IMG/VR virus record: IMGVR_UViG_3300044799_000154
Span: 1 to 64,000 of that record
DNA: 64,000 nucleotides
Source: a virus
Reading direction: 5' to 3' (one strand)
The position numbers were made by a program, and so were the translations under genes. The notes beneath the pieces were generated by a model. That model was not told the DNA's origin. It ran no database searches and saw nothing but the letters and a program-made list of their open reading frames with translations. Of the stretch, positions 6,249 to 25,891 are shown in pieces. Positions within the stretch are counted from its first letter, which is position 1; each line of letters begins with the position of its first letter.

Positions 6249-6257
6249 GGTGAGAAA

Positions 6258-6596
6258 ATGGGTAGAAAGAAAATAAGAAATGAAGAATATACTAGAATGA
6301 TTCTTCCAAAAACTACTGATGTAGTAGGAACAGTAGTACAGATGCTAGGCAATGATAGACTTCTAGTTAGACTTCCAGATGGAAAACAGATGATAGCTCG
6401 CATTAGAGGAAAGATGCGAAAGAGGGTTTGGATAAGACAAGGAGATGTAGTTCTAGTATCACCATGGGACTTTGAACCAGAGAAAGGAGACATTTTTTAC
6501 AGATATACACGAGACCAAGTCAAGGAACTAAAGAAACTTGGATTTAAGGTGTATGAACTTGGAGAAGGAAAGAAAACTAGCATCGGAAATAATTGA
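6258..6596 (+). CDS. eif1a: translation initiation factor aIF-1A (eIF1A)
   Basis: LPK..DVVGTVVQMLG..RIRGKMRKRVWIRQGDVVLVSPWDF..KGDI.YRY; GGTGA SD-like sequence upstream. Confidence 0.95.
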   Translation: MGRKKIRNEEYTRMILPKTTDVVGTVVQMLGNDRLLVRLPDGKQMIARIRGKMRKRVWIRQGDVVLVSPWDFEPEKGDIFYRYTRDQVKELKKLGFKVYELGEGKKTSIGNN

Positions 6597-6811
6597 CAGA
6601 GTTGAATGGGCTATCAGAAAAGCTCATCCTAAAGTAGATAAGGTAGGAAAGAACTGTCATGGAAATACACTACTTTATGGTGAGAAATATTTTGACTTAG
6701 AAGATACTCTGACTGAGATTATCCAAGATGCTTATCCTGCATATAGCAAGAAAAAGCAAACTTCATTCAATCCATCAAAAAGAGAATAACGTCTCTAAAA
6801 CGGGGTGAGCA

Positions 6812-6825
6812 TATGGTTAACCATG
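6812..6825. repeat. dispersed palindrome copy (TATGGTTAACCATG)
   Basis: 13/14 match at a gene boundary. Confidence 0.85.
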
Positions 6826-7082
6826 AAGTTGGCATGTACAATTGTCCTGTTTGTAAGAAGAATCTTAAACGAATGGGTGAAGCTTCTATATTGACAGGCT
6901 TACCTAAAGAAGTAGGGAAGGAGATGGATTATTATTACTGTGCTGATTGTCACACGAATATGAATCGTTGTTGCTTTATCTTCTTTAAGGGCATAATATT
7001 CATTTTCTCTGACCATAAAAATTGGGAAGAACTAAGATTCAATCCAAGTGCAAGATATGGTGAAAATTATGAAATGCCCTGA
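6813..7082 (+). CDS. Zn-ribbon protein, family shared with 14544, 15883 and 19657; NPSxR tag
   Basis: CPVC..YYYCADC..aromatic strand..W..FNPSAR. Confidence 0.6.
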   Translation: MVNHEVGMYNCPVCKKNLKRMGEASILTGLPKEVGKEMDYYYCADCHTNMNRCCFIFFKGIIFIFSDHKNWEELRFNPSARYGENYEMP

Positions 7083-7180
7083 ATGTAAAGATACTTTGGT
7101 ATACGACCACATAGAGAATAAATGGTATTGTCTAAAGTGTAAAGCATATCCAGATGTAAAAATGATATTATGGTGAAAGT

Positions 7181-7600
7181 ATGAATCCTTCAAGTAGAGA
7201 AATATATGTAGTTGGTGTTTTTGACTGTGGCTGTAACTATGAAGCTGGCTTTGGGTCTGTAGAGATAGTCAGATGCTCAAATATGTCAGAACTCAATGAC
7301 ATCAAACAGAAGATGAATAAACACTCTTCAGAATTTCAATGTCATTTTAGACATGCCCTCTGTCTCTTGGTTTTTGAAGGAAAACTTAAATTCAAATTTA
7401 AGGGATATGGAGCTAAGAGTTACAAAGGATATATCAGAACTTGGAATGCTAGGAACAAAGATGGAAGGAAAATGGGTAAGGAAATAGTTACTTTTAATAA
7501 GCAATTTGATAGAATTTGTGCATGGCTTGAAAGACATAGAAAATATAAAGAGAAAATTATACTTCAAGAAGATGCTAATACAGGATGTGGTTTAGCTTGA
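7181..7600 (+). CDS. hypothetical protein, N-terminal NPSxR tag
   Basis: MNPSSRE. Confidence 0.6.
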   Translation: MNPSSREIYVVGVFDCGCNYEAGFGSVEIVRCSNMSELNDIKQKMNKHSSEFQCHFRHALCLLVFEGKLKFKFKGYGAKSYKGYIRTWNARNKDGRKMGKEIVTFNKQFDRICAWLERHRKYKEKIILQEDANTGCGLA

Positions 7601-7785
7601 AAACTAAAATTAGATTTGCTTTTCCTTTAGGTGCAATTGCCTCAATTGCTATCTTTATCTATTTGATAAGTAGTGAAATCTGGTATCAACTAAGTTTTGC
7701 TCTGAAGTTCCTAGTAATAATTGCATTAACTATTCTATTCTTCTGTGGAGAGTTTGAATACTCAAAGGAAAGAAATGCACAGTGA
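7585..7785 (+). CDS. small two-TM membrane protein
   Basis: two hydrophobic segments. Confidence 0.55.
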   Translation: MWFSLKTKIRFAFPLGAIASIAIFIYLISSEIWYQLSFALKFLVIIALTILFFCGEFEYSKERNAQ

Positions 7786-7802
7786 CTGACTGGCGGGAAT
7801 TG

Positions 7803-7816
7803 CATGGTTAACCATG
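7803..7816. repeat. dispersed palindrome CATGGTTAACCATG (perfect copy)
   Basis: intergenic; preceded by CTGG...AATTG, like the copy at 447. Confidence 0.9.
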
Positions 7817-7868
7817 TCAGAAAATGGAAATGGGGAAACAGGGATATATTCAAATTGGATGAATATTA

Positions 7869-8282
7869 ATGAGTGTGAAAATAACTCTTTCAGAGAATGC
7901 AAAGCGTCAGATTATCTTTCATGCTTGTCTTGATGCAAAGAATAAATTCTATCCAAATGCTATTGTCAATTGGGTAGATGATGATTATAAAATCTTAGTA
8001 TATTTTTGTTCTAAAATACAAACAAAGAAGAAAGTAGGTTTCTTACGAAAGAAAGAAATTTCTGAAGAACATGACTTAGAGATTCATTGTGTAGAAGTCA
8101 AACTCTGTCATCTAGGGTTCAATGATATGGATTGGGGAGAAATTAAAGTCAAGTCTCTTCATAAAGATTATGATGCCCTAGCAGAAGAGATAGCTCATAC
8201 CATTGAACAATACACATCAATAATTCTCATTATTAATAACCCAAGTAAAGTAGAATCTTTACAGAATCCAAGTAGGAGATAA
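7869..8282 (+). CDS. hypothetical protein with NPSxR tag
   Basis: NNPSKV..QNPSRR*. Confidence 0.6.
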   Translation: MSVKITLSENAKRQIIFHACLDAKNKFYPNAIVNWVDDDYKILVYFCSKIQTKKKVGFLRKKEISEEHDLEIHCVEVKLCHLGFNDMDWGEIKVKSLHKDYDALAEEIAHTIEQYTSIILIINNPSKVESLQNPSRR

Positions 8283-8690
8283 GATGAGATTCAAACGTGG
8301 ATATTATGGATATCTAGAGTTCGTCAGACCTAATCCATCTCGAAGAGACTCTTTTATTCAAACTGAATGCGAATGTGGCATAGAACCAGCTACACACTTT
8401 CATAAAGTTTACAAAGAGAGGAAAAGATGATGATGAGATGGTGGTGGTGTTCTAAACACCATATTGCTGTCCCTGTAACTGATGAATGTCCTATCTGTGA
8501 AAGAGAGAAGATGAATCCTAGTAGGCGAGAACAATGATTCCCACCTCATATTTTTGCCCCATCTGTAGTGAATATCGAGCTAATAATGTCTTTGACTTTA
8601 TTTCTCACATAAGTATGAAGCATGGACAAGGAAATCCTTTCAAAGATGAGGAAAGAAAATATTGGTTGAATCCTAGCAGGAGAGATAATC

Positions 8691-8957
8691 TTGATATCAC
8701 AAGACTCAGGAAAAGATATGGAGAATAAGAAGAATCAGGCTCTCTTGAGTATTCTGAGTTCAGAAGCAAGGCAACGGTTAGAACGCATAAGGATGGTAAG
8801 CACAGATAGAGCAGAATATCTTGAATATATCTTAATCCATCTAGCTTCTCAGAATAAACTTAGAATTCCAATGGGAGATGAAGATTTCAAGACTTTCATT
8901 ATGAGTAATGTTCCATCAAAAAGAGAAATTACAATAAAACGAGAATATGAAAAATAA
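8691..8957 (+). CDS. PDCD5/MTH1615-family DNA-binding protein (likely start ATG 8718)
   Basis: ILSSEARQRLERIRMV..RAE.LE..LI.LA.Q.KL...DEDFK. Confidence 0.85.
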   Translation: MISQDSGKDMENKKNQALLSILSSEARQRLERIRMVSTDRAEYLEYILIHLASQNKLRIPMGDEDFKTFIMSNVPSKREITIKREYEK

Positions 8958-9417
8958 AGAGGAATAATTTTGGGTTTGTATTTTTCAGGAAGAATAATTC
9001 AAGAAGAGACAGTTCTAAAACATCTGTTGGGAAAAGGTGTTCAACCCATTGGGAAAGAGGATGGAGCCAATGCTAATTATAACTGTGAAAGCTTGGGTCA
9101 TCGGATATGGGTTTGGATTAACCTGAACACAGGATATACAATAGCAACAGGAGATGAAGGAAATGGGTGGGTTATTGAATTAGCTAAAGGAACAAAAGAA
9201 GAAGTCTTAGAGAAAATACACCCTCTCAACTCTTCCAGACGAGTTCAAGATTCTAAGATTAAACCTCGTTATCGTAATATTTTTGAAAGTATCAAATCTT
9301 TGGAAAGGTAAGAAGATGAGGAAAATTATTAAAAGAGAAAAGCTTTGTAAACATTGCAAGAATCAAATTGCTTCTCCAAAGTATGCTTGGTTCTGTGACC
9401 ATTGGGTGAGATAGATA

Positions 9418-9789
9418 ATGAGAAATATTCAGATGAGCTGGAAAGAGTTTGATAGAACTACTCGCTTACTAGCTAGAGACATTAAGAAATCCAAGATACA
9501 ATATTCAGCTCTTTGTGGAATTCCAAGAGGAGGGTTAATGATAGCCGTTAGGTTATCTCATCTTTTAAATATTCCATTAACAGAAAATGAAAGCTTAGAT
9601 TTTATGGATAGAACGATATTGATAGTTGATGATGTAGCAGATACAGGCAAGACTCTACAGTTCTATGCACGTTTTGGTTTTCCAACAGCTACATTATATT
9701 GGAATCCTGAATCTTCTATGCAACCTAAATTCTGGATTAAAAGAAAGTCTTCAAAAGAATGGATTGTCTTTCCATGGGAACAGATGTAA
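9418..9789 (+). CDS. purine phosphoribosyltransferase
   Basis: GIPRGGL, PRPP loop ILIVDDVADTGKTL, WIVFPWE. Confidence 0.9.
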   Translation: MRNIQMSWKEFDRTTRLLARDIKKSKIQYSALCGIPRGGLMIAVRLSHLLNIPLTENESLDFMDRTILIVDDVADTGKTLQFYARFGFPTATLYWNPESSMQPKFWIKRKSSKEWIVFPWEQM

Positions 9790-10316
9790 TAGAATTCAGA
9801 AAACTGAAAAGAACAGATAAGAAATTGCTCTTGACTTTTGCTAAAGCTTTAACTTCTGACACTAAGATGAGATGGGGTTTACTAGAAGAACCAAAAGATA
9901 TTGCTAGATACATTATGGAAGAAAGACATAGAAATGGTTGCAAGAAGCATACTCAGATAATTGGTATTCAGAACAAAGTAATTGTTTGCTATGGAAAGGT
10001 TAGTGTCTTTGAATCTGGAGTTGGTTATATTGAAGGAATAGTAGTTCGTTCAGATTTACAAGGTAAAAGTATAGGAAAGCAACTGATGACATATCTGGAA
10101 TCTTTAGCTGAGAAAGAGAATTGTCCTTATGTAAAGTTAGAAGTATTCAAGGAGAACACCAAGTCAATTGAATTCTATGAACATATAGGCTACAAGAAGA
10201 GAGGACAATCAAGTGGCTCTTGGTTCATGAGGAAATACTTAAATCCAAATATACCCAAGAAAGAAAATCTGTTCAAGAAAATTAAACGTAAGTTGAAAGC
10301 TAAACGCAAATCCTAG
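9759..10316 (+). CDS. GNAT family acetyltransferase
   Basis: LQGKSIGKQLM and N..SIEFYEHIGY motifs. Confidence 0.85.
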   Translation: MDCLSMGTDVIEFRKLKRTDKKLLLTFAKALTSDTKMRWGLLEEPKDIARYIMEERHRNGCKKHTQIIGIQNKVIVCYGKVSVFESGVGYIEGIVVRSDLQGKSIGKQLMTYLESLAEKENCPYVKLEVFKENTKSIEFYEHIGYKKRGQSSGSWFMRKYLNPNIPKKENLFKKIKRKLKAKRKS

Positions 10317-10404
10317 TTGGGGTGGCAGAGTTTGGTAATGCGTAAGTTTGCTAAACTTAAGCCTGTCTATGACAGCAAGAGTTCAAATCTCTTCCCCAAC
10401 GCCA
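10316..10404 (+). tRNA. trnS: tRNA-Ser (anticodon GCT) with encoded CCA
   Basis: acceptor stem GTTGGGG/CCCCAAC, discriminator G plus CCA, D arm GCA..TGGTAA..TGC, anticodon stem TAAGT/ACTTA with loop TT-GCT-AA (10350-10352), long variable arm CTGTC/GACAG, T arm AAGAG-TTCAAAT-CTCTT. Confidence 0.93.
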
Positions 10405-10426
10405 TCTCATACATGTCACCTTTTCC

Positions 10427-10440
10427 CAAGGTTAACCATC
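10427..10440. repeat. dispersed palindrome copy (CAAGGTTAACCATC)
   Basis: intergenic, just downstream of the tRNA. Confidence 0.75.
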
Positions 10441-10865
10441 TGTAATGGGGGAATCGGGATATGTTTACTGAAGAAACAATTTCCTTAAAAAATATGGAAA
10501 GAGAGAAAAGGAAAATAGAGACTCATCCTAATTCTGCTCACCTTAAGATATTTCCTTTCAAATGCCCTAGTTGCAAGAAGACAGATATATTCTGGTTCAA
10601 TAGCAATGATTTCCTAGTCTGTAGTCATTGCCGTCATATATGGTTACTTGAAGTAGAGAATCCAACACGGAGAGATTGTAAATGAAAACTCCTCTAATCT
10701 GTGAAAGATGTCATAAGAAATTCTTATGTCAAGCTAGAGTTAGTGGAAAATATCCTGTATCCGATTGTGAGACAGTTGAAAAATGTGTCTGTGAGAATTG
10801 TAATCCTGCAAATAGAAAGTCACCTTCTTGTCATAATATTCCTTTTGAAATGAATCCGTCAAGAC

Positions 10866-11159
10866 GTGACAATTGAGGAAGACAACTTGAAAAACTGTGA
10901 AAAATGTGGTTTAGCTCCTGATTTATGTGCTTGCAAAGAAGAAGAGAAAGAGAAGTCAATGCTTGAGAAATATTGCCCAATCTCAGAAAGAGAAAGATGC
11001 GTGATATGTGGTCATATATGTTTTGGACTTATGGATTTTGCACAGCATGTAGCTCAATTTCATGGAATCTCTGCACTTCAGTATTGGAATAAATATGGAC
11101 ACAATGGAGAAAAACAAACTGATGAGACAATCAATCCATCTAAACGTAAACAAGAATAA
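10866..11159 (+). CDS. Zn-finger protein with aIF1/SUI1-like N-terminal knuckle and C2H2 finger; NPSxR tag
   Basis: CEKCGLAPDLCACKE resembles the archaeal aIF1 N-terminal CxxCGLPxxLCxCxE; CVIC..H...H. Confidence 0.5.
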   Translation: MTIEEDNLKNCEKCGLAPDLCACKEEEKEKSMLEKYCPISERERCVICGHICFGLMDFAQHVAQFHGISALQYWNKYGHNGEKQTDETINPSKRKQE

Positions 11160-11197
11160 GAAAATAAAAATGAAATGTCCACATTGTCTGAAAGAAT

Positions 11198-11482
11198 TTG
11201 AGCCTAAAGCTCTTGCTGAATTATATGTATGTCCCTTATGTGGTTGTTGGATGCCTAGATATGAAAGATAAAAAGATTTGGAAAATCTATGTTAAAGATA
11301 ATCTTTGCATTCGATGTGGAAAGTTCATTGATGCTCAAACTTACTTTGGAGTCTTGTGTCAGAAATGTAATGAGTTGTGGATAGAATTTGCTCAAGAGAA
11401 TGGTATATCTCCACTTTATGCAGATTCTAAGAAGAAATTCTGGTATAGTTTCATAGATATGAATCCTTCAAGTAGGTTGTAA
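11198..11482 (+). CDS. Zn-finger protein, family shared with 14998 and 16978; NPSxR tag
   Basis: CxxC..LCxxC..W...W..F...NPSxR. Confidence 0.6.
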   Translation: MSLKLLLNYMYVPYVVVGCLDMKDKKIWKIYVKDNLCIRCGKFIDAQTYFGVLCQKCNELWIEFAQENGISPLYADSKKKFWYSFIDMNPSSRL

Positions 11483-11641
11483 TATGAACCCATCTTTAAG
11501 ATATAGAGTAAAATGTAAACCTGAGAAAGTAACATATCTTGGAGAAGCATTTATTGGTAAAAATTGTTATTATTGGATAAAAGGATATTGTAGTTTCAAA
11601 GGAAAATGTTGCTTCAAAGCAGGAACTAGAATGTGATTTAA

Positions 11642-12631
11642 ATGGAATCAGAAAAACAAGCAAAAATCAAAGAATTATACATGAAATCAGAAATTAAAGC
11701 AATCATCACCTTGTATATCAGACCTGAGACTAGAAAACAGAAGATACTAGATTTATTGAAGAAAGAAGAACCAATAGTTGATAATATCAAGTCTAGGGTA
11801 ACGAGAGAAGGAATCAAAGCATCATTTCAACGTCTTAAAACTTTCATTGAAAGAATACCAAGTTCTGAGAATGGTTATATTATCTGTGTCTCTCCAGAAA
11901 AGCTAGTTTATGTCACAGATATTGTAGTAAATAGAGACAAATACTTTTGTGGTGGAGAATTCTATTCTGTTCCTTTGGAAGAAGAATTAGCATTAAGACT
12001 TCATCCAATAGGAATAATAGCTCTTGATACTCAAGAAGCAACTATTGCTTTTATTGGAAATAGAATTGAGATTCTTAAATCTATGACTTCTGGAATCTCT
12101 GGTAAACATAATAAAGGTGGACAATCTCAAAGAAGATTTGAACGAGAACGAGAAATGGAGATATTGAATTTCTTCCATAGGGTAGCTGATGCTTCTAAAG
12201 TCTTTGTGGAGAGTTATCCAATAGAAGAATTGTTGGTTTCTGGATGTGGACAAACTAAGAACAAGTTTCTTGATTCCAAGTATTTAGATTATAGACTTAA
12301 AGAGAAAGTAACTTTGGTTCTTGATACTCAATATACAGGAGATGCTGGTATCAGAGAAACCCTTCATAAAGCATTACCTTCTCTTGAAAAGAATGCTTAT
12401 GCTAAAGAAGTTAAAGCAGTAGAGGATTTCTTTGAACTTCTAAACAAGAACTTTGAAAGAGTTGTTTATGGGAAAGAAGAAATAGAAAAGAATCTTCATT
12501 CAATTACTAAGATTATCAAGGTAGAAGAAAACCCTTTGAATTATGAGAAAGACACCATAGTCCTTCATTTCAAAGGAGAACATGCTGATAAAATAAGAGG
12601 ACTTGGTGGAATTGTTGGAGTTAAGTGCTAA
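11642..12631 (+). CDS. prf1: class I peptide chain release factor aRF1/eRF1
   Basis: NIKS motif, YFCGGEF (YxCxxxF) and GKHNKGGQSQRRFER (GGQ); shortened domain 3. Confidence 0.93.
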   Translation: MESEKQAKIKELYMKSEIKAIITLYIRPETRKQKILDLLKKEEPIVDNIKSRVTREGIKASFQRLKTFIERIPSSENGYIICVSPEKLVYVTDIVVNRDKYFCGGEFYSVPLEEELALRLHPIGIIALDTQEATIAFIGNRIEILKSMTSGISGKHNKGGQSQRRFEREREMEILNFFHRVADASKVFVESYPIEELLVSGCGQTKNKFLDSKYLDYRLKEKVTLVLDTQYTGDAGIRETLHKALPSLEKNAYAKEVKAVEDFFELLNKNFERVVYGKEEIEKNLHSITKIIKVEENPLNYEKDTIVLHFKGEHADKIRGLGGIVGVKC

Positions 12632-12661
12632 TGGATTAGATGCAAAAGAAGGATTAATGGA

Positions 12662-12916
12662 ATGAAAGGTATGAAGTTATTTAAAATTCACACAGGAAGA
12701 GTAGAAGTTAAATGCTCTATCTGTTGGAAGAATATTCCTGTTGGAGAAGAAAGATTAACAGCCAATCTAGGTTCTGGAATGTATCCACGTCATTATCACA
12801 TTCTTTGTTTCTTGAAGAGATATATCAAAGAGATTAATTATCTTGGAAATAGAATTCAAGTAGAACTGAATCCTTCTTCAAGAAAAACAATAGAAAGCAA
12901 AGAGGAAGAAGAATGA
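12662..12916 (+). CDS. PARP-type Zn-finger-like protein with NPSxR tag
   Basis: CSIC..IP.GE.R....YHILCF. Confidence 0.55.
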   Translation: MKGMKLFKIHTGRVEVKCSICWKNIPVGEERLTANLGSGMYPRHYHILCFLKRYIKEINYLGNRIQVELNPSSRKTIESKEEEE

Positions 12917-13237
12917 GCTTTGAAATGATATTAGGTAAGAAAAAGATAATTATACCAGAAGAGAAAATCTTTCAAATCCCAGAACCAACTGATAATCCTC
13001 TAATTTTCTGGCTTTGGAATCCTGAATTAAAACCAGCTTTTACTATTAGAGAGTCTTCTTTAATCATAATGAATCTTTATTCTGTAAAAGAGATGAAAGA
13101 TTGTGATGCTGATATGGTAGGTTCATCTCTATTTCTAAGTGCAGTTTTGGTAGAAGAACTAACTCATTGTGCTACTTTATCTCTTAGAAATCATAAGAAT
13201 TGGAATAAATGGTTAGAACATCTACAGGAGGAATTAC

Positions 13238-13837
13238 ATGGTAATGAGTAAAAAGAAAATATTTCTTATTCTTCTAGCAGTAATCTTTGGAGGCTATGCT
13301 GGATGGCAATTACTTATACCCAATGAACCTCTTGTGAATATCTACAAGTGGCGATATGAAGAGATGAGTAAACCAGAATATCTTCAAGCTCTTAGAGATT
13401 TCTGTACGAATGAGCTTAATGATTCCATTGAAAACTTAAACTATTCTCAGCTAATAACTTGGGAACACAAACATCTGACATATACTCCTTATCAATTCAA
13501 CAGAGAAGAGATGCCTATTGCAATTCTAAAAGGACTTTTCGGTAGATGTGGAGAATTTGCTCTTTGTTACAATGGTTTATGCCTAGCAAATGGATATGAG
13601 ACAAGATTGATAGTAGATGATTCTAGAGCTACAGGTAACAAAACATCAGGAGACCATGTTTGGGTAGAAGTTAAAATTAATGGAAATTGGATTCATGTAG
13701 ACCCAACTGAATCTCGTTTTAATGACTCAAAGATGTATATCAGAGATTGGAACAAAGAAGTCAATCATGTCGTAGCTATAAGTAAAGATAATTCTGGTAA
13801 CATGGTGATAATAGATGTTACGAAAGATTACCAATGA
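13238..13837 (+). CDS. membrane-anchored transglutaminase-like / PNGase-like Cys hydrolase
   Basis: N-terminal TM; GRCGEFA, DHVWVEV and WIHVDP give a Cys-His-Asp triad. Confidence 0.85.
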   Translation: MVMSKKKIFLILLAVIFGGYAGWQLLIPNEPLVNIYKWRYEEMSKPEYLQALRDFCTNELNDSIENLNYSQLITWEHKHLTYTPYQFNREEMPIAILKGLFGRCGEFALCYNGLCLANGYETRLIVDDSRATGNKTSGDHVWVEVKINGNWIHVDPTESRFNDSKMYIRDWNKEVNHVVAISKDNSGNMVIIDVTKDYQ

Positions 13838-14032
13838 AACAACATTCTCAGAAGAATATTGTAGAATTCTAAGGGAATCACAGCGAAGATTAGCTTTGAT
13901 ATCTGAAGAAGATGATAAGGCTTCTCTTTGGAATGACTACTTTCTGAAACTTCAACTTTTACAAGAATGTATAAATATGAATCCAAGTCGAAGAGACCAT
14001 AAAGAAAATAAAAACTACTCATTTGTAGCTCC

Positions 14033-14524
14033 ATGGATAGTGGGGAAATGAGAATAAAAGTTTTAATTTGTGGAGATAGGAATTGGAATTATCCAGAAGA
14101 CATAGATGCCTTTGTTCAATCCCTTCCAAAGGATACTATTATCATAGAGGGAGAATGCAGAGGAGCAGATATCCAAGCTAAACAATCTGCTATCAAACAT
14201 AAACTCATAGTTGAGAGTTATCCAGCTCAATGGGTAAGATATGGAAAAGGTGCAGGAGTTCTTAGGAACAAAGAAATGCTTGAAATTGGTAAACCTAATT
14301 TGGTAGTTGCATTCCATACTGATTTAGCAAAGAGTAGAGGAACTCGAAATATGATTTCTCTAGCAATGGCTAAAGGATTGCCAGTCACTATCTATGGACA
14401 TTCTATGGAATCCAGAAACATTAATGCCTCAGTTATGCAAAAATTAGCGACCATATGCGGCTCCAGTAGCACATGGTTAACCTTGGATACAGTGCACTGC
14501 CAGTCTGACTTTATAATGGGCTAA
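14033..14524 (+). CDS. SLOG-superfamily (DUF2493/YspA-like) protein
   Basis: VLICGDRNW, IIEGECRGAD, YPAQW..YGKGAG.LRN..ML, SRGTRNM. Confidence 0.8.
   Translation: MDSGEMRIKVLICGDRNWNYPEDIDAFVQSLPKDTIIIEGECRGADIQAKQSAIKHKLIVESYPAQWVRYGKGAGVLRNKEMLEIGKPNLVVAFHTDLAKSRGTRNMISLAMAKGLPVTIYGHSMESRNINASVMQKLATICGSSSTWLTLDTVHCQSDFIMG
14472..14485. repeat. dispersed palindrome copy (CATGGTTAACCTTG)
   Basis: 13/14 match, in the non-conserved tail of the SLOG ORF. Confidence 0.85.
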
Positions 14525-17295: not shown

Positions 17296-18078
17296 ATGGA
17301 ATACCTAAAAGAAAATGATACAAAAGAATTCATTAAACGGTTACCAGATTTGACAGTTAATCCTCTCAATGTTCACTTAATAATGTTAGCTGTTAGGTCT
17401 AGAAAAGCTAGAGAGATAATGGGTTTCAAAGTAAAAGACTTGGTTATTGAAAGACGCATCATTAGACCAATTCCTTATCTTCCAAATCAGAACTTGGACA
17501 TTTCTAATTGGAGAGAGAAATACTTCAATACTGTTTACAATCTTTCTATCCTTCAACATCAAGGAAGATATTCTGTCAAAGGTGTTCTTGCTCCTGCTGA
17601 AGCTATGGGAATCTTTGCTACTTTAAGTCCTAGAAATGTTATGTCTGCTAATGCTGATTTGATGAAAGAGAACATAACCTATTTCTATCAAGGAGATGAT
17701 ACATCCAAAATGGAAATAGCCAAGCTTAGTTCTAGATACTTTGGAATGCTTCATAGACATAAGGATAGAAGTTCTAATTTTGTAACCTTAGATATTGATA
17801 ATGGAGACAAACTTCTTTTCAAGGAAATCTTAGACAAAGTAAGTATCCTTCCTATCTTCATGGCTACTGAGACTTCAAGAGGTTACCACATAGTCTTGAA
17901 TCTTACCAAACCAGAGGATGCTAGAATCTTCTATGGAAAGAATGCTCTTATTCAACAATTAGGTTTAGCTTATGCTAAGAAAGGATTGGAAATTCAGAAG
18001 GACTCGCAAGAACCTGTGGCAGGGACATTGTATTATCGGGAGAAAGGAGTAATCCATTATGTCACAATCTTACAGTAG
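17296..18078 (+). CDS. putative archaeo-eukaryotic primase (AEP)-superfamily protein
   Basis: LDID (DxD) and ETSRGYHIV (motif II). Confidence 0.5.
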   Translation: MEYLKENDTKEFIKRLPDLTVNPLNVHLIMLAVRSRKAREIMGFKVKDLVIERRIIRPIPYLPNQNLDISNWREKYFNTVYNLSILQHQGRYSVKGVLAPAEAMGIFATLSPRNVMSANADLMKENITYFYQGDDTSKMEIAKLSSRYFGMLHRHKDRSSNFVTLDIDNGDKLLFKEILDKVSILPIFMATETSRGYHIVLNLTKPEDARIFYGKNALIQQLGLAYAKKGLEIQKDSQEPVAGTLYYREKGVIHYVTILQ

Positions 18079-18364
18079 AAATATAGAAATCTATTGGATG
18101 CTTATTATGACAGCTATAGCTTTAATCATTTCTGCTACTTTCCTAGAAGGTTGGACTTCAATTTACGTCTTGGTAATTGCTGGAGTTATCTATATTATAT
18201 CTCAGATATTCTTCTGGTGGAATAGATGGAAACATCAGAAGAATGCATGCAATACTACTAATTACCACGGTCTTTCAGGAATTTATTACCAAATGCATGG
18301 GAAATATATCAATTATATTACTCAATTTATTACAAATTTCAGTAATTCCGCCCAGTGCAGAGAG

Positions 18365-18386
18365 CTGGTTAACCATGGTTAACCAG
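18365..18386. repeat. doubled palindrome CTGGTTAACCATGGTTAACCAG
   Basis: perfect 22-bp palindrome containing two GGTTAACC cores, in an AT-rich context. Confidence 0.9.
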
Positions 18387-19910
18387 TAATTAGATTACAA
18401 TTTTATTATATAATTTGAAGGAATTTTCATGAGAATGGTTTGTCCAGAATGTTATCCTTATCTGAAGAATAAGGGCAGAGATACAATAGAATGCTTCCTT
18501 GACAGAGTAGATATCTTTCCTCAATTTCCAGAAGCAGGTCAATGTCCACGCTGTAGGAAAATCTGGAATGATGATGGAAGAGAGATTTTGGTAACTGGAC
18601 AGATTAAAGTAGAACTAAAAGATAAAGAATATAATCCATCAAGGCGAGAAGATTGAGAAATGAAAATAAATCCAAGCAACTTGACCTGAGGGAGCTTTCT
18701 GATGTGGAAAGGATTGCGTTAAGTGGAGATAATCCTTCACTTAGATTCTACTGCTTATACAAAGAGACTTTAGACAAAATTCTCAAAGACATAGAAAAAG
18801 CTAGGGAATCTAATAATAAAAGCAAAGTTCTTGGACTAACTTTGGAAATGTATCTCGCTTATCGAGAAAAAACAGGATGTGAAGGATGCACGAAAGGAGC
18901 AGATAAATGTGTTCATTGGTCACCAGAGAGGGTTGAAGTCAATAGGAGTTAGAAAATGAGTTCAACTACTAAACAAGTAAATAAAAAAGCTGTCAAAGTA
19001 TTCCACTTCTGGTTCTGTTCAAAATGTTTACAAAAAATAGATATGTCCAAATTGCAAGTTGCATTGGATATTCCATTTGGAGACCCTAATGACCTAAGTA
19101 AAAACTTAGAACCAATTGGTTTCAAACTTTGTTGTAAACTATGTGACAATACTACTTTTGTTAAGAAAGAGTTCTCTATTCCCATTGAAGATATCATTGA
19201 GAAAGAACTAGAAAAGCAATTGAAAGAATATACTAACAACAATCGGAATCCAACAAGGAGAAATTAGGAAATGAATGTTATGAGATTACAGGAATATCTT
19301 GAAGCTCACAAAGAAGTGCCAAAAGAAGCTCTCTATTTCTCGAATGAAAGGAAATGCTCTCTTTGCGGCAATTTCTTTCATGTTCAAAATTCAATCTTCC
19401 TTATGGGGACTAAGATAAATAAATATGGTACTATGTCTATGAACCTTTGCAAAGATTGTTTACCCAATTGGCAAAAAGAATTCAAGAAACATAGATTGGT
19501 CTCAACTATTCATGACTGGCATTGGTCTTGTTGGGATTTAGATAAGCCTATGCCTCATACAGAAGTTGATAGAGTTTTCCTTTATTTGGAGAATGGACAG
19601 TTCTTTCTTCAAACAAACTTTAATCCATCCAGACGAGAAAGAGTGGAGGAAATTAGATGATGCGATGTCCTATATGTAATTCTGTGATGAATATTCATGG
19701 TCAACTATCTTTACCAGAGGATAGACCACCTTTTAATTTGACTTCTAAGAAGATTGTTCCTTATTATCAATGTGAAAATTGCTTAAAAAGTCCTAAGAAA
19801 AACTTAGCATATCAAAGAGTGATTGTTGATGGAAAATGGTATTTCTTTAATTGGGGCAGATGGAATTTTTTGAGAGAAAGTATTTTTAATCCAAGTAGGA
19901 GGGCAGACTA

Positions 19911-20366
19911 ATGTATTGGATAAATGAAAGAATAGGAACGGCATCAGCAGATGAGATTACACATGAATATCATCATCTGATAGATAAATATTTTATCTGT
20001 TGTCTAGATATGATAGATGGAAAGAATGACCCAGAGATAATCTATCAAAAGCTAAAGATAGCTTTGAATCAATGGTGTCTTGGAAGGAAAGTAATATTCT
20101 TCTGCTTTGCTGGAATATCTAGAAGTAATGGAATGGCTACAACTCTCATTGCATATTATCAGAATATGGATTGGGAAGATGCTTATACAATTACAAGAAA
20201 GGCTTGTCCTAGAGCACAAGTATGTCTTGATTTTTCTGATTCCTGTAAAATAGCTCTTGAGATGATGAGAACCAGATTAACTAAGAAATGTCCTTTTTGT
20301 AATAGTCCTATTGAATATTGGGAAGAATGTTGTAGTTATTGTTGGTCAAATAGAGTGAAGAAGTGA
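19911..20366 (+). CDS. dual-specificity/tyrosine protein phosphatase
   Basis: CX5R P-loop CFAGISRS; C-terminal Zn ribbon. Confidence 0.85.
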   Translation: MYWINERIGTASADEITHEYHHLIDKYFICCLDMIDGKNDPEIIYQKLKIALNQWCLGRKVIFFCFAGISRSNGMATTLIAYYQNMDWEDAYTITRKACPRAQVCLDFSDSCKIALEMMRTRLTKKCPFCNSPIEYWEECCSYCWSNRVKK

Positions 20367-20608
20367 GAAGTGAATTGTTGGAAATCCAAGAGGCAACTGA
20401 ATGAAAATATTAATCATTTATGATAATAACAATTCACAAGTAAAGAAAGGATACAAAGGAATGTTTTTTACAAATGATTTTGGTATAAGACTTTATTATC
20501 CAAATATTAAAAATCCAATAGATTTGTTTCTAACTTATTTCCATGAAATTCTACATTATCTTTCCAACAAATATTTAGGAAAAGGTGAGAGGATAGTGTG
20601 GATACTTC

Positions 20609-21763
20609 TTGATTATAGAAAAGACTATTTGCTTAAACATGGAATTAATCCTTGGAAAAAGGAAAGGTAATACTTTGAGTAAGTTCTCTTCTAATCTAGA
20701 AATCTGGTGGTCTCAAAGAATCAAAGCATCTAAGAATGGAAAGACACTTTCTCCCCTGACTATTAGAGGAGTTCTTTATTTGATGAGACAGAAAGTAGGT
20801 ATTAAGGCAATGCCTAAGACCAAGGCTGGATTCTATTCAGCTCTTGAAAGAGTCGAGATTCAATTCAAAGTTCCTAGAGAGAAATTGAGAATAGTAACAG
20901 AACCCAAGGTAAATCTAATCTCAAGGTCAGGTGAAGTTCCCTTACTCAAAGCAGACCCAAAAGAATTCCAGAATGCATGTGCCTTAATTTACATTGAGAA
21001 ATCAACTATCATAGAAGCAATCGAAGAAGATAAGAGCTTGACTGATAGAGGAATCCTGATTATCAAAGCAATGGGATTCTCATCTAGAGAAGTAAATAGA
21101 ATAATCAAACAAGCTCAGTCATTGGGATTACCCATTTTTACATTAACAGACTATGACCCATCGGGAATTCTGATAGACCTCAAGATTCAAGACTCAGGAG
21201 TGAAAACTGCTAGACTTGGAGTAGACCCAGAGCTCGTAAAGACTTTAAATTTAAAGCTTGACGATGTTCGTGAAGCTCTTCCAAAGGATAAGAAGAAGTT
21301 GGCTCATTACAAATATCTGAAGACCAAATATCCTAAGTTAGCAGATGGGTTCTTGAAGATAGGAATGAATAATCAACCTTATAGAATAGAAATAGACGGT
21401 ATCTTTGCATTAGCAGGAAAGGATAGATTTGTTGAGGAAATTCTAAAAAGAGCAGATAATATTGTTCAAATTAAGCCCATACAGAAAGTTCTCAAGCACA
21501 AGAAAGTTCCTGAGAATGTGAACAAAATGAAGGAAGAGATGCATGCAATAGTTGATAAGTTGTTTGAACAAGCCTCTGAGGATGCAGAGAAGTCCCATAT
21601 AAACGCTAAAGATTCTTTCAATAACATACATCTGAGTAAGATTGAGAAATCCATTGAGAAGACTATAGATTCAAAGTCTTCCAATGATACAACTCAGGTA
21701 TTGCAAGATACCATAAATAGTCTTCAAAAATTATTGGAAGCTCAGAATCATAGAGGAAAATAA
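20609..21763 (+). CDS. Topo VI subunit A/Spo11-like TOPRIM protein
   Basis: RGVLY, PREKLRI, YIEKST, KAMGFSSR, TDYDPSG and RIEIDG. Confidence 0.75.
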   Translation: MIIEKTICLNMELILGKRKGNTLSKFSSNLEIWWSQRIKASKNGKTLSPLTIRGVLYLMRQKVGIKAMPKTKAGFYSALERVEIQFKVPREKLRIVTEPKVNLISRSGEVPLLKADPKEFQNACALIYIEKSTIIEAIEEDKSLTDRGILIIKAMGFSSREVNRIIKQAQSLGLPIFTLTDYDPSGILIDLKIQDSGVKTARLGVDPELVKTLNLKLDDVREALPKDKKKLAHYKYLKTKYPKLADGFLKIGMNNQPYRIEIDGIFALAGKDRFVEEILKRADNIVQIKPIQKVLKHKKVPENVNKMKEEMHAIVDKLFEQASEDAEKSHINAKDSFNNIHLSKIEKSIEKTIDSKSSNDTTQVLQDTINSLQKLLEAQNHRGK

Positions 21764-21764
21764 A

Positions 21765-22214
21765 ATGACACATAAAAAGTCACATAAAAAGAAAGAAATA
21801 AACTTGGAAATATTAATTAGAAAAGAAGCACAGGAAAGATTGGTAATCAAAGCTAAAAGATTCTTCCAAAAAGACCTTAGACATACTTCAGGATTTAGTG
21901 ACAAGAAAGGATTAACTTGTGTAGTTCTGGATACTCTCCTGAAAGAAATGTATCAATCTTGTTATCAAGATGTCATGGAAGATGGAGAAAATCAATGTGT
22001 TGAAAATGTTGAAGAGATGGCTAATGATATTGCAACAGATTTCGTTGAAGAAGAAATAGCTTCTGAAATTAGTAGAGTAGCATTGCATGAGATTATTCAT
22101 ACTATGCTTCCATATCAGTATGATGATTGTTGTGATGGTTGTGAGGAAGAAACAGTAGAATTAATAGTTGAGCAAATGACAGAATATCCTCCTAATTTAA
22201 TTGATATAGATTGA
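21765..22214 (+). CDS. acidic HExxH protein
   Basis: LHEIIH..EEETVE. Confidence 0.45.
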   Translation: MTHKKSHKKKEINLEILIRKEAQERLVIKAKRFFQKDLRHTSGFSDKKGLTCVVLDTLLKEMYQSCYQDVMEDGENQCVENVEEMANDIATDFVEEEIASEISRVALHEIIHTMLPYQYDDCCDGCEEETVELIVEQMTEYPPNLIDID

Positions 22215-22275
22215 TTGAAAGTCATTTGTTGACAGAGTTGTTCCCTAAGGAACATAAAAATAAAGGAAAGATAAA

Positions 22276-22650
22276 ATGAAAAAATCGGCGGAAATCTCAA
22301 AAGAAATTTTAGAAGAAATCTTGGATAATTTTGATAGAGACATCTCAATACAAGAAATGCTTGACAAAGCAAAAAACAAATGGCACATAGGAAAAAGCAG
22401 ACTTTTCATAATTTTGAAAGAAAATGGAAGACATAGAATAGACACAGGAATTTCAAATTATCGGAAAAAGTTGAGAGAAAAAGCTAAATCTTATTGGGCA
22501 TCACAATTAGACAAACCAGAAGAAGAAAGTTTGATTTGGTTGCTTGAACCTGAACTTGGGAAAATTGATGCTCAACTAATTATCAGGGGATATGCTTTGA
22601 TAAAAAAGAATACCAAGTTAAAAAAGCTTTTAGAGAGTGAACATATATGA
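22276..22650 (+). CDS. hypothetical basic protein
   Basis: ORF coupled to the GHKL gene. Confidence 0.5.
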   Translation: MKKSAEISKEILEEILDNFDRDISIQEMLDKAKNKWHIGKSRLFIILKENGRHRIDTGISNYRKKLREKAKSYWASQLDKPEEESLIWLLEPELGKIDAQLIIRGYALIKKNTKLKKLLESEHI

Positions 22651-24158
22651 AGCAAATAAAAAGGATAATAAAAACACAATTGAAACCTTTGAATCCACAC
22701 ATGCCAGCAATGTTCCAAAATTGGATTCGTCAGGGAAATGCCAGTCCAATAGAATTTCTTATTGAAGGAATTGACAATGAACTTGAATATGGAAAATCTC
22801 GGTTCATAAAAATAATTATTCTTAGAAATACTTCAAAGCCATTGATAATTCTTAAAGGATTTGGAACTGGAATGACAAATAATGGCTGGAATTTTTTTAC
22901 CAATTCATTATTTAAGAACTGTAGTCAAAAATCATCTGTAGGAGGAATTGGACTTTTTGGGGAAGGTTTGAGAAGAACCGCTTTCTCACTTTCAATTGCA
23001 CAAAATAAGGAATTTTGGGTTTGTTCAAATAATAATGGACATATAGAAAATGCTTTGTTTATATGGAACCCAAAAACTGGACTTCCTTCTAGGCAACTTT
23101 CTTACCCTATGTGGGCTAATAACCTTGAAAATGAGAGAAGGTCTAAAAATGGAGTTACTATAGCTGTTCCATATCTCTGTTCTAATCAAGAAATCTCTGA
23201 AATAAAAAATGTTCTTTCAGACACATATGCTTACAATCTCTATAATAACATTTTGAGAATAAAATTGGAAGTCATAGACAATAATACCAAAATTTCTTAT
23301 CCAATTGATTTTCCCAACTATGGAACAAATCAAGTAAAACATGTTTCTTTGGGAAAACAGATAACAGGAACTATTTTTGAAAATCCTACTGCTGGAAATG
23401 ATTCTGGAGCAATTAAATTTTATTTCAAAGGAAGAAAAGTTTATGAACCTCAGAGAAAAAGAATCTCAGCCATTGCTTGGATTGACATAAGTAATTTATC
23501 TGGGATAAGAGTGAATCTTACCACAAGAAAAAATGGCTTTAAAACAGGCTTTCAGACTTCAAAGATTGACCCTCTAATCTATCAGATTTATAAAAACTAC
23601 AGCATTTCAGGAGTAAGTTCTAACACGGTATCCACATTAGCTAATAACTTATACAAAAAAGCTATCAAAGCAATAAATGTTGGAATGAAAAGACCAAGAA
23701 AAATAGCAGAGTTCTTGTTTAGATGTACAAATCCCTTTTGCAGTTTCAATTTAAAAAATAAGAAACCTTTTGAAATTTTCTCTCTAATAAATTGTCCTCT
23801 AAATTGCCCACATTGTTCTTCTATCCTTACTTGGATTCCTACAATTAAATATCCTCCAAATCCTACTGGAAGACAAAATAATACACAACAAATTGCTTGG
23901 AGTGTACAATCTTTTAATGGTTTGCATTTTGTATTCTATAGTTTTCCATCTGTTATCATTGACTCTAAACATCCTTTGTATCATAAGTTTCTTAATATGA
24001 CTAGCAAAGGTCAAGGAAGAATCTTGGGAGCTTATATTGCCGAAGTAGCGGAAATAGCCAACAGTCCCAGTCAAAGAAATTCGTCATCTGTTACTCAAGA
24101 TCTCCAGTTAAGATTAGATAGAATAGCTAGAGTCAATCTAGCACTAGAGTCAATCTAG
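22647..24158 (+). CDS. GHKL (HSP90/MORC/TopoVI-B-like) ATPase-domain protein
   Basis: EGIDNELE, GFGTGM, GLFGEGL and GVTI motifs; internal Zn ribbon. Confidence 0.65.
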   Translation: MKQIKRIIKTQLKPLNPHMPAMFQNWIRQGNASPIEFLIEGIDNELEYGKSRFIKIIILRNTSKPLIILKGFGTGMTNNGWNFFTNSLFKNCSQKSSVGGIGLFGEGLRRTAFSLSIAQNKEFWVCSNNNGHIENALFIWNPKTGLPSRQLSYPMWANNLENERRSKNGVTIAVPYLCSNQEISEIKNVLSDTYAYNLYNNILRIKLEVIDNNTKISYPIDFPNYGTNQVKHVSLGKQITGTIFENPTAGNDSGAIKFYFKGRKVYEPQRKRISAIAWIDISNLSGIRVNLTTRKNGFKTGFQTSKIDPLIYQIYKNYSISGVSSNTVSTLANNLYKKAIKAINVGMKRPRKIAEFLFRCTNPFCSFNLKNKKPFEIFSLINCPLNCPHCSSILTWIPTIKYPPNPTGRQNNTQQIAWSVQSFNGLHFVFYSFPSVIIDSKHPLYHKFLNMTSKGQGRILGAYIAEVAEIANSPSQRNSSSVTQDLQLRLDRIARVNLALESI

Positions 24159-24186
24159 CATTAGAATAGGATTCTAATAGGATTCT
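24127..24186 (+). repeat. adjacent 17-bp and 11-bp tandem duplications
   Basis: CTAGAGTCAATCTAGCA x2 (24127-24160); AATAGGATTCT x2 (24165-24186). Confidence 0.9.
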
Positions 24187-24223
24187 TTAATAGAGAGTTC
24201 CTTCTCTTTTCTATTGGATAAAG

Positions 24224-25117
24224 ATGGAAGAGAAAGAACTACTAAGAAGACAACAGCTACCATTGAGAATAAAAATCAAACTTTCTCAAGATATGATTAG
24301 ACAATTCCATGAAATGTTAGATGGAAATGTCTACATCAGCTTTTCTGGTGGAAAAGATTCAACTGTTCTTCTTCATCTAGTTCGTCAAATGTATCCAGAA
24401 GTGCCAGCAGTCTTTGTTGACACAGGACTAGAATATCCAGAAATTAGAGAATTTGTAAAGACAATTTCTAATGTAATCTGGTTAAAGCCAAAGAAGTCTT
24501 TCTATCAAGTTGTTAAAAAATATGGTTATCCTATTGGTACTAAAGCTCAAGCAACATATATTCGACAGGTTCAAACAACAAAAAGTTCATCATTTAGAAG
24601 TTACAGGTTACACGGAAAGAAAGGCAATTACAAAGTTTCTGTAAATGACAAATGGAACTTTTTAGTGAATGCTCCTTTCAAGACTTCAGAAAGATGTTGT
24701 TATATTCTGAAAAAGAATCCTGTCAAAATATTTGAAAGAGAGACTCTTCGTAGACCTTTTATGGGAACAATGGCAATAGATTCTATTAGTAGGAAAAGAT
24801 TGTATCTTCAGAGTGGTTGCAATTCATTTGAGTTTGGAAAAGAACAATCTACTCCACTAGGATTCTGGACTGAAAAAGATGTATGGGATTATATTCATCA
24901 GAATAGAATTCCATATTGTACTCTTTATGATAAAGGAATGGATAGAACAGGATGTATGTTCTGTCTATTCGGGATAGATAAAGAAAAGACTTCTAGATTT
25001 CTTATTTTGAAGGAACTTCATCCTGAACTTCATTCTTATTGCATGAAGAACTTGGGTATTGAAGAAGTCTTAGAATATTTGAAAATACATGGAATTAATG
25101 TTCCTATTTGGGAATAA
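24224..25117 (+). CDS. PAPS-reductase-family (PP-loop) protein
   Basis: SFSGGKDS, VDTGLEYPE, CC..LKK.P and RTGCMFC. Confidence 0.85.
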   Translation: MEEKELLRRQQLPLRIKIKLSQDMIRQFHEMLDGNVYISFSGGKDSTVLLHLVRQMYPEVPAVFVDTGLEYPEIREFVKTISNVIWLKPKKSFYQVVKKYGYPIGTKAQATYIRQVQTTKSSSFRSYRLHGKKGNYKVSVNDKWNFLVNAPFKTSERCCYILKKNPVKIFERETLRRPFMGTMAIDSISRKRLYLQSGCNSFEFGKEQSTPLGFWTEKDVWDYIHQNRIPYCTLYDKGMDRTGCMFCLFGIDKEKTSRFLILKELHPELHSYCMKNLGIEEVLEYLKIHGINVPIWE

Positions 25118-25140
25118 AATACACTATAGGGTTAGCTTCC

Positions 25141-25154
25141 CATGGTTAACCATT
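25141..25154. repeat. dispersed palindrome copy (CATGGTTAACCATT)
   Basis: intergenic, 13/14 match. Confidence 0.85.
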
Positions 25155-25235
25155 TTATCATTTTCTCTGCTGGTTGCGGGTCAATTCAACAGTAGTGGCA
25201 TCATGGATTTTGACCCACAACATTTTATGGTAATT

Positions 25236-25250
25236 TAAAACTTAAATAGG
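25236..25250 (+). promoter_or_regulatory. putative archaeal BRE/TATA promoter
   Basis: AAAACTTAAATAGG about 20 nt upstream of ATG 25263, after a 145-bp intergenic gap. Confidence 0.4.
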
Positions 25251-25597
25251 TAAAGTGATATAATGTCTATTGATAGAGCTTTGTCTCAACCAGAAAATCC
25301 CAGTGAACGGTATCCATTGATGCCAATAATCTTAAGATGTAATCATTGTGGTCAAGACTTTACTGTTTGGAAGGAATTCTTAGACCATATGGAAAAGTCT
25401 TCCCATAGAATATGTTACAAATGTGGATATTCCTGTGGTGGAATGGTTGAGTATTTACGTTCAGAGTTTATAGCAATCCATCAAATTGATGGAACTGTAG
25501 AGTCATGGAAATATAAGCACATAATTCCATGTCCTTTTCTTAACCCTTCAAAAAGGAGTTTAAAGAATAATGACATATAAAAAAGGAGTGATTAAAG

Positions 25598-25891
25598 TTG
25601 CCATTTAAGCGTAAGAGTCGTGGTAGGTCTAAAGGTAATAAGGGAAGTGGAGCTACTGTTCAATGTGATAATTGTGGGGCAATAGTTCCAAGAGATAAGG
25701 CTAAGAAAGTTATGAGTAGACTTTCTTTCGTTGATTATGCATTAGCTAAGGAGTTACGAGATAAAGGTGCATATCTTCCTTTGTCTTCTGATGTAAAATA
25801 TTACTGCATTTCATGTGCTGTGCATCGTGGTATAGTGAAGGTCAGAGCTGAGAAAGAACGTCATACACGCACACGAAGATATCACAATTGA
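25598..25891 (+). CDS. rps26e: 30S ribosomal protein eS26 (S26e)
   Basis: KRKSRGRSKG..VQCDNCG..VPRDKAKK..YCISCAVHRGIVKVR. Confidence 0.95.
   Translation: MPFKRKSRGRSKGNKGSGATVQCDNCGAIVPRDKAKKVMSRLSFVDYALAKELRDKGAYLPLSSDVKYYCISCAVHRGIVKVRAEKERHTRTRRYHN

Follow-up and report, generated by a model that had tools for sequence, protein, structure and literature searches.

The 64,000-nucleotide stretch analysed here (the window) makes up the first 64 kb of one viral contig of 121,517 bp, IMG/VR record IMGVR_UViG_3300044799_000154. Its plus strand carries four genes for host-type parts of the translation apparatus: the initiation factor aIF1A, a serine tRNA, the release factor aRF1 and the ribosomal protein eS26 (Table 1). 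All four had been named in an initial annotation made from the sequence alone, and Pfam, ARAGORN and Rfam recover each of them at the same place. A core resembling a Shine-Dalgarno (SD) sequence lies 5-13 nt upstream of each gene: GGTGA in the case of aIF1A and GGAGTGAT in that of eS26. Pfam scans of 50 window proteins, which set the scope of this census, turned up no other translation-related gene, elongation factors included. The genes are viral, intact, preceded by SD cores and, where this could be tested, under purifying selection (ratio of nonsynonymous to synonymous substitution rates, dN/dS, 0.12 for aRF1 and 0.27 for aIF1A).

The element itself is a large head-tailed archaeal virus of ~121.5 kb. 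IMG/VR classes the record as linear, CheckV puts its completeness at 92%, and its GC content is 35%; no terminal repeat of 20-200 nt was found in the 121.5-kb genome. Genes lie on the plus strand up to ~81 kb and then on the minus strand from ~81 to 117 kb. The structural genes lie in the minus-strand block and the 117-120 kb region; those for the HK97-fold capsid protein, portal and large terminase, by which Caudoviricetes are recognized, are at genome positions 101912-119574, outside the window. The terminase is at most 27% identical to any in 50,697 GenBank phage records. The window adds proteins of replication and DNA metabolism: a family-B DNA polymerase, a ribonucleotide reductase, a Rad51/RadA-like ATPase, an ERCC4 nuclease and ParB-like proteins. 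The initial annotation had taken the contig to be viral or extrachromosomal: capsid, portal, terminase and the completeness estimate bear out the former, and the structural genes, combined with the status of the sequence as a virus record, rule out a cellular chromosome or host fragment. Henceforth we refer to the whole genome of this virus as G000, to a 156-kb IMG/VR relative as G001 (its aRF1 locus being L084), and to a 26.8-kb metagenome contig that is syntenic with the window over ~20 kb as L004.

Table 1. Coordinates of the translation genes, of other features of the genome and of tRNA arrays in related loci ("structural region" stands for the minus-strand block and the 117-120 kb region; capsid, portal and terminase are at 101912-119574).
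Feature	Position	Strand	Remarks
aIF1A	6258-6596	+	112 amino acids; Pfam PF01176 (eIF-1a), E 2.4e-26
tRNA-Ser(GCU)	10316-10404	+	89 nt; ARAGORN, Rfam RF00005
aRF1	11642-12631	+	329 amino acids; Pfam eRF1_2, E 3.8e-27
eS26	25598-25891	+	97 amino acids, TTG start; Pfam PF01283 (Ribosomal_S26e), E 2.9e-24
Second GNAT	4346-4771	+	
Phosphoribosyltransferase-domain protein	9418-9789	+	set among the translation genes
GNAT acetyltransferase	9759-10316	+	stops where tRNA-Ser starts; 79% identical in L004
Transglutaminase-like protease	13238-13837	+	set among the translation genes
Topo VI-A/Spo11 Toprim-like protein	20609-21763	+	384 amino acids; Pfam E 9.9e-9
PAPS-reductase/PP-loop protein	24224-25117	+	set among the translation genes
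Eukaryote-type topoisomerase IB	46855-48390	+	Pfam Topoisom_I, E 3e-53
HK97-type major capsid protein	structural region		PHROG major head protein, E 4.2e-14; Pfam Phage_capsid
Portal	structural region		PHROG E 2.8e-9; Pfam Portal_Mu
Terminase large subunit	structural region		PHROG E 1.3e-24; Pfam Terminase_6N
Protease	structural region		E 3.5e-53
Minor tail protein	structural region		
LonB-type protease	structural region		
tRNA array, L006	2227-4168		14 tRNAs
tRNA array, L008	267-3099		14 tRNAs
tRNA array, L084	8364-9255		6 tRNAs

The release factor is encoded by one uninterrupted open reading frame (ORF) starting at ATG 11642, with no prfB-like frameshift at its start: the site CTT-TRR-C is absent from the plus strand between 11460 and 11720. 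The protein carries the motifs of stop-codon recognition, NIKS at residues 47-50 and YFCGGEF (the YxCxxxF motif) at 101-107, and that of peptidyl-tRNA hydrolysis, GGQ at 159-161; the conserved Glu is intact. Across 42 members of its clade N48, S51, Y101, C103 and F107 are invariant, as are G159 and G160, and at least 90% of the members have Q161. At the position that we equate with the eukaryotic GTS loop, the viral clade has N-K-D or N-H-D and cellular rows have G-T-x, H-T-A or A-T-V, in an alignment that is short and gapped at this point. The AlphaFold model (predicted local distance difference test score, pLDDT, 90.9) has the three-domain (N, M, C) eRF1 fold. Used as a Foldseek query, it matches eRF1/aRF1 structures with E values of 1e-23 to 1e-20 and Pelota more weakly (~1e-11); by phmmer the nearest solved sequence is the Aeropyrum aRF1 3AGK (E 9e-33 over residues 9-287). 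Pelota was considered as an identity and ruled out: TIGR00111 yields 49 bits versus 190 for the aRF1 profile, the structural matches to Pelota are the weaker ones, and GGQ is present. With Pfam, eRF1_3 reaches 22.2 against a cut-off of 25.8 and eRF1_1 goes unreported.

A database search with aRF1 returned 84 matches that fall into two groups: 44 short proteins (most of 313-348 amino acids, three partial at 257-269) with 48-93% identity and at least 329 bits, and 40 ordinary aRF1s with at most 139 bits. Contigs named in the cluster records of the short clade reach 114-157 kb. In five Bathyarchaeia genomes cellular aRF1 shows 33-40% identity to the viral protein and has open frames of 420-439 amino acids; in a sample of 61 genomes of the Bathyarchaeia phylum an aRF1 match was found in 60, with identity never above 41% and open frames of 366-472 amino acids. 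Within the viral lineage dN/dS is 0.12 against L004 and 0.13 against L005, and between G000 and G001 aRF1 is 61% identical, the terminase only 32%. Such comparisons of sequence indicate that aRF1 is better conserved than the terminase in a lineage of large viruses, and highly diverged from cellular aRF1.

A small ORF directly upstream of aRF1 (11484-11636, plus strand) begins M-N-P-S-L-R. The heptamer CTTTRRC occurs 60 times in the window, both strands counted and mostly on the minus strand, against 38.7 expected and 56 in the largest shuffle. One Bathyarchaeota metagenome-assembled genome (G006) contains two full-length aRF1-like frames, of 429 and 424 amino acids (C1:413772-414425 and C1:142652-143557).

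aIF1A is an initiation factor that binds the A site of the small subunit. The viral protein scores 91.6 bits with Pfam PF01176 (cut-off 30.2) and 108.8 with the NCBIfam subfamily model NF003084 (cut-off 91), and narrowly misses two equivalogs (TIGR00523, 102.4 vs 102.9; NF003082, 105.6 vs 108). Viral and cellular rows agree without exception in 27 columns. The core residues are kept, and the protein has a C-terminal extension in common with some members of its clade, two of which carry KNPSIGNN (P0208) and KNPNFGNN (P0212) there. Databases hold 22 proteins that are 58-91% identical; the named cellular matches are from Bathyarchaeota (51-54%), and the best cellular identity in the 61-genome sample is 55%. 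L004 carries a syntenic aIF1A, 78% identical, which gives the dN/dS of 0.27. The cluster of the top aIF1A relative lists a 126,883-bp contig, as does the cluster of the 93% aRF1 relative. Within IMG/VR, single-protein scans with eS26, aRF1 and aIF1A gave no match; scans with alignments found one aRF1 relative (L084 in G001) and three weak aIF1A-like matches (32%) on contigs of 4-5.6 kb.

The identity of eS26 is borne out by profiles: 86 bits with Pfam (cut-off 27) and 122.1 with the NCBIfam equivalog NF006816 (cut-off 118). All 40 aligned eS26 proteins, the viral one included, agree at the zinc-binding residues C23, C26, C70 and C73 and at 38 other columns; in the viral protein two near-invariant threonines are altered (T39M, T66V), changes common to P0004 and P0005. 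Identity between the viral eS26 and many cellular proteins lies at 75-80%, and those that are named come almost all from Bathyarchaeia; among species-representative genomes Bathyarchaeia are again the best (up to 77%), followed by Nitrososphaera (65-68%).

The gene nevertheless has the composition of the virus. At third codon positions its GC content (GC3) is 0.224; the viral mean is 0.27, and nine cellular eS26 genes have 0.42-0.63. This amelioration rules out recent capture from a host; nucleotide identity to 80 cellular genes is at most 72%. Its surroundings were compared with 80 cellular eS26 loci (flanks of up to 3 kb, less at contig ends) using the 52 plus-strand ORFs of at least 50 amino acids that start at 4000-14000 or 20000-30000: bar a single PAPS-reductase match, only eS26 itself matched. 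eS26 was captured alone, without cellular neighbours, and its present neighbours are viral; the contention of the initial annotation that the translation genes are scattered singly and outside host-like operons holds. A separately assembled 15,550-bp Logan contig, possibly from the same sample, spans eS26 with zero differences; in run X2 none among the pieces listed bridges it. Because GC3 is viral, nucleotide identity to cells does not exceed 72%, the neighbours are viral and a Logan contig spans the gene, eS26 is neither a fresh capture nor a chimera. A second viral eS26 was found neither in the 50,697 GenBank phage records nor by pattern scans of IMG/VR, whether these used the protein or the alignment.

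The tRNA-Ser(GCU) scores 60.2 bits with the Rfam tRNA model (gathering score 29) and has the cloverleaf, long variable arm and anticodon of a serine tRNA. It is the sole tRNA of the 121.5-kb genome, lies 1.2 kb upstream of aRF1 and reads AGY, which makes up 30% of viral Ser codons. A DNA search with it in five Bathyarchaeia genomes, run without a positive control, gave no match. Arrays of tRNAs stand upstream of aRF1 in three of the six relative loci scanned, and no suppressor tRNA was found in any of these arrays; no tRNA was found in L004.

The initial annotation had treated the four genes as one translation toolkit and had proposed phylogenies against host orthologues as a check. Of the 62 rows of the aRF1 tree, 14 are of viral type and fall together in a single clade, with a support of 100 in the Shimodaira-Hasegawa-like approximate likelihood ratio test (SH-aLRT), against 48 cellular rows; the stems joining the two measure 1.87 and 1.06 substitutions per site by a quick method, so long that a cellular donor cannot be named. 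The 23 viral-type aIF1A rows also form one clade (SH-aLRT 98), in which the label viral is direct for the window and L004 and inferred for the other rows. The eS26 tree, built from 94 columns, is poorly resolved, with a weak grouping of the viral protein with P0004 and P0005 (SH-aLRT 86). The distributions differ as well: across the lineage aRF1 is widely conserved, aIF1A is confined to a subclade, and eS26 was found in G000 only. On the sequences compared, the four genes are not a single co-inherited kit, and the histories of the three proteins are very different. Overall, the observation of the initial annotation is confirmed and its interpretation is partly supported.

That interpretation had invoked long chains of translationally coupled micro-ORFs, a description that is roughly right. 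On crude calls, viral products are short (median 121 amino acids, 77 of 207 under 100), at 81 of the 146 gene junctions in the window neighbouring genes abut or overlap (a gap of zero or below), and ATGA overlaps number 21. An SD core stands before 59% of the 207 viral genes versus 15% at control positions; for cellular genes the figures are 42% of 447 in Bathyarchaeia loci and 8% of 84 in those of Nitrososphaera. The 207 genes end in TAA (93), TGA (78) or TAG (36). TGA accounts for 71 of the 171 plus-strand genes (42%), for seven of the 36 minus-strand structural genes (19%) and for 21% in the Bathyarchaeia loci, and part of the excess is due to the 21 ATGA overlaps. Stop-codon reassignment is unsupported: three stops are all used, and suppressor tRNAs are absent from the arrays. 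The stretch is present in two peat metagenome runs from two studies. From the affinities of eS26 and aIF1A, the SD rates and the peat runs, the host is probably a peat-dwelling member of the Bathyarchaeia.

Among the genes interspersed with the translation genes (Table 1), the GNAT protein that adjoins the tRNA has as its top NCBIfam match RimI, the ribosomal protein S18 acetyltransferase, at 44 bits and under the cut-off of 86. The ORF at 20609-21763 was considered as a candidate for aRF1 and ruled out, being Toprim/Topo VI-A-like instead. A homologue of this Toprim protein lies directly 3' of the viral aRF1 in five related loci (L008, L009, L010, L013 and L084), with 56-64% identity, rising to 91% in L004; it is among the best conserved genes of the lineage. 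A homologue of the topoisomerase IB, 45% identical, was found in the related contig L006 (5789-7312).

Taken together, these data lead us to favour, with moderate confidence, the view that the virus captured at different times, and then kept under selection, four host-type translation parts that act on host ribosomes. The proteins most likely supply or bias initiation and termination on those ribosomes for the ~200 viral genes, which are short, SD-led and in many cases overlapping. Stop-codon reading and peptide release would fall to viral aRF1; viral aIF1A would support initiation or reinitiation at the A site; and at the mRNA exit channel and the 16S rRNA 3' end viral eS26 would take the place of a loosely attached protein or add to its supply. 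Their joint effect would be to increase or safeguard capacity for initiation and termination, and not that for elongation. The factor classes encoded are indeed those of initiation and termination, with no elongation factor among the 50 proteins scanned. Approximately 200 short proteins made from tightly packed, often overlapping cistrons imply a disproportionate need for just these steps, since short products require more initiation and termination events per peptide bond than in a typical cell. Published work offers several points of contact. In the available text of PMC11698992, eS26 of Saccharolobus surrounds the 16S 3' end within the mRNA exit channel, a placement incompatible with an SD duplex; the protein is loosely bound and sub-stoichiometric, and an excess of it favours leaderless initiation. 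Viruses are described as preferring dynamic, exchangeable ribosomal proteins (PMC6375957, in the part available), and an available portion of a study of haloarchaeal virus infection states that expression of host aIF1A is sustained as most of the translation machinery declines (bioRxiv 10.64898/2026.09.13.751334).

Several observations weigh against this view. A Pfam search of G001, with G000 as positive control, found neither eS26 nor aIF1A, and the 126,883-bp contig of the closest relative (aRF1 93%, aIF1A 91%) gave no eS26 above 80% identity. The data on excess eS26, as the accessible part of PMC11698992 gives them, predict that SD-led initiation is inhibited, yet the viral genes are SD-rich; with 59% of them SD-led, simple blocking of SD pairing by extra eS26 would hurt the virus itself. 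The viral aRF1 reaches 190.5 bits with the NCBIfam equivalog TIGR03676 against a cut-off of 234.7, over profile positions 9-301 of 403, and is for this reason a divergent relative and not an equivalog. It also does without the N-terminal helix, a 12-residue loop of the N domain and the C-domain insert of the long cellular forms; trimmed parts and a missed cut-off mean that it may behave unlike a standard aRF1. One member of its clade, P0152, whose cluster lists a 134-kb contig, reads NIQS for NIKS and GGS for GGQ, and is possibly an inactive or re-purposed copy or a sequencing error. Finally, the viral genes were called crudely, as the longest ORFs.

Other explanations attribute different roles to the same genes. 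A lineage of tailed viruses of 115-157 kb, with Bathyarchaeia-like archaea as hosts, could build virus-specialized ribosomes, with a long-diverged release factor of its own that matches any other of its genes in conservation and acts unlike that of the host, and with aIF1A and eS26 added by some members. aRF1 might then drive termination-reinitiation at overlapping cistrons, or resist attack by host or virus on aRF1, and eS26 would re-tune the mRNA exit channel and the anti-SD end. We think this unlikely, and give no greater weight to the proposal that the genes are replacement parts in a counter-defence. According to the latter, diverged copies would escape whatever inactivates cellular aRF1, aIF1A or tRNAs, be it abortive infection on the part of the host or a shut-off of the host by the virus itself, and viral translation could go on once that of the host is crippled. 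The extreme divergence of an aRF1 that is nonetheless constrained (stems of 1.87 and 1.06, dN/dS 0.12) suits this proposal, as do its conservation above that of the terminase between G000 and G001 and the tRNA arrays that adjoin it in relatives, sets of phage tRNAs having been linked to escape from tRNA-cleaving defences. With its mild divergence (75-80% identity) eS26 is a poor fit to an escape variant; among the scanned window proteins, none was recognized as a nuclease or protease directed at such a target, and a defence system aimed at aRF1 or aIF1A is not known to us and was not found.

It is also conceivable, though quite improbable, that termination itself is altered: an aRF1 with a changed stop preference, or one that works differently with aEF1-alpha or ABCE1, might for example turn the TGA of ATGA overlaps into sites of termination-reinitiation, or compete with near-cognate or pyrrolysine (Pyl) decoding in the host. 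The N-K-D/N-H-D residues at the loop position, the missing N-terminal helix and 12-residue loop, the frequency of TGA on the plus strand (42%, against 19% in structural genes and 21% in Bathyarchaeia loci) and the 21 ATGA overlaps could be read in this way, but all three stop codons are in use, no array holds a suppressor tRNA, NIKS, YxCxxxF and the conserved Glu are intact, and much of the TGA excess may follow from the overlaps and an AT-rich composition. Inhibition of host translation, whether by over-produced eS26 that blocks SD:anti-SD pairing or by dominant-negative aRF1 or aIF1A, would shut down protein synthesis in the host. Excess Saccharolobus eS26 abolishes an SD-led toeprint (PMC11698992, available text), and phage bS21 in E. 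coli ribosomes cut in vitro translation to ~5% (PMC6375957, available text). A virus whose own genes are SD-led more often than those of the Bathyarchaeia loci (59% vs 42%) would, however, block itself, and the retention of GGQ would favour catalysis over blockade; we rate inhibition as very unlikely. Scarcely any credence attaches to functionless passengers or an assembly artefact, whether recently captured host DNA or host and viral reads joined as a chimera. The contig is of metagenome origin and eS26 occurs in this genome only among the viral records searched, but its GC3 is viral, it shares at most 72% nucleotide identity with 80 cellular genes, its neighbours are viral, and the 15,550-bp contig, separately assembled though maybe from the same sample, crosses it without differences; aRF1 and aIF1A are constrained (dN/dS 0.12 and 0.27) and conserved in related contigs. 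This last explanation is already largely refuted.

Viruses that carry parts of the translation apparatus are already known; these particular parts and the deep viral clade of aRF1 appear to be new. eRF1 and eIF1A are known from giant viruses, and bS21 and others from phages. A full-text search of the literature found no report of eS26 in viruses, nor of aRF1 or aIF1A in archaeal viruses, though supplementary tables of PMC6375957 and PMC13573593 may list more. Apparently new, then, are a viral eS26, a virus-specific aRF1 clade linked to tRNA arrays, and a virus-type aIF1A clade. The compact aRF1 is a natural minimized release factor in which the role of the trimmed parts can be studied, and the find provides the little-known large viruses of peat with host-linked genes and with a candidate host, the Bathyarchaeia. 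Because eS26 competes with the SD duplex and is loosely bound in a crenarchaeon (PMC11698992, available text), the viral copy offers a direct test of whether a single swapped protein re-specifies archaeal ribosomes.

Comparison with known systems places the virus in a varied company. eRF1 of mimivirus and megavirus, reportedly treated by Jeudy et al. in 2012, is one of the translation factors of giant viruses of eukaryotes, and recoded phages carry release factors. The present virus resembles both in combining a class-I release factor and an initiation factor with tRNA; it differs in its archaeal host, its genome of ~120 kb, an aRF1 gene that is neither recoded nor frameshifted, and unreassigned stop codons. 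With canonical archaeal aRF1 (TIGR03676; 3AGK/3VMF of Aeropyrum pernix, 4AF1) the viral protein shares the three-domain fold, NIKS, YxCxxxF and GGQ, whereas it is 329 rather than 366-472 amino acids long, at most 41% identical and set in a clade of its own on a very long stem. Head-tailed archaeal viruses with single host-type translation proteins, Bathyarchaeia among their hosts, are the closest precedents: eL21 in Hafunaviridae, the earliest report of a ribosomal protein from archaeal viruses (PMC8651126), next bL19 in a Kunpengvirus of Bathyarchaeia (PMC10848311), and S6e, L15, L15e and L30 together with IF1 in archaeal proviruses (PMC13573593). The proteins concerned are different ones, and eS26, aRF1 and aIF1A go unreported in the available text of these three papers.

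The phage protein bS21 provides the nearest parallel to eS26 (Mizuno et al. 2019, PMC6375957, in the part available). Both are small, basic, exchangeable proteins of the small-subunit platform near the 16S 3' end that influence the use of SD:anti-SD pairing, and phage bS21, like the eS26 described here, is found in large tailed viruses; it is under purifying selection. The term 'S26' is absent from the main text of that paper, as distinct from its supplementary tables. eS26 is non-homologous to bS21, binds zinc and is of the type found in eukaryotes and in TACK and Asgard archaea; incorporation into ribosomes has been shown for bS21 (PMC6375957, available text) and is proposed for viral eS26. 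The likeness, which the initial annotation had suggested, has a published structural basis: in the available text of PMC11698992 the authors themselves compare archaeal eS26 with bS21 in Bacteroidetes. Should viruses of this lineage prove to build specialized ribosomes, eS26 would be the archaeal counterpart of phage bS21, independently arrived at.

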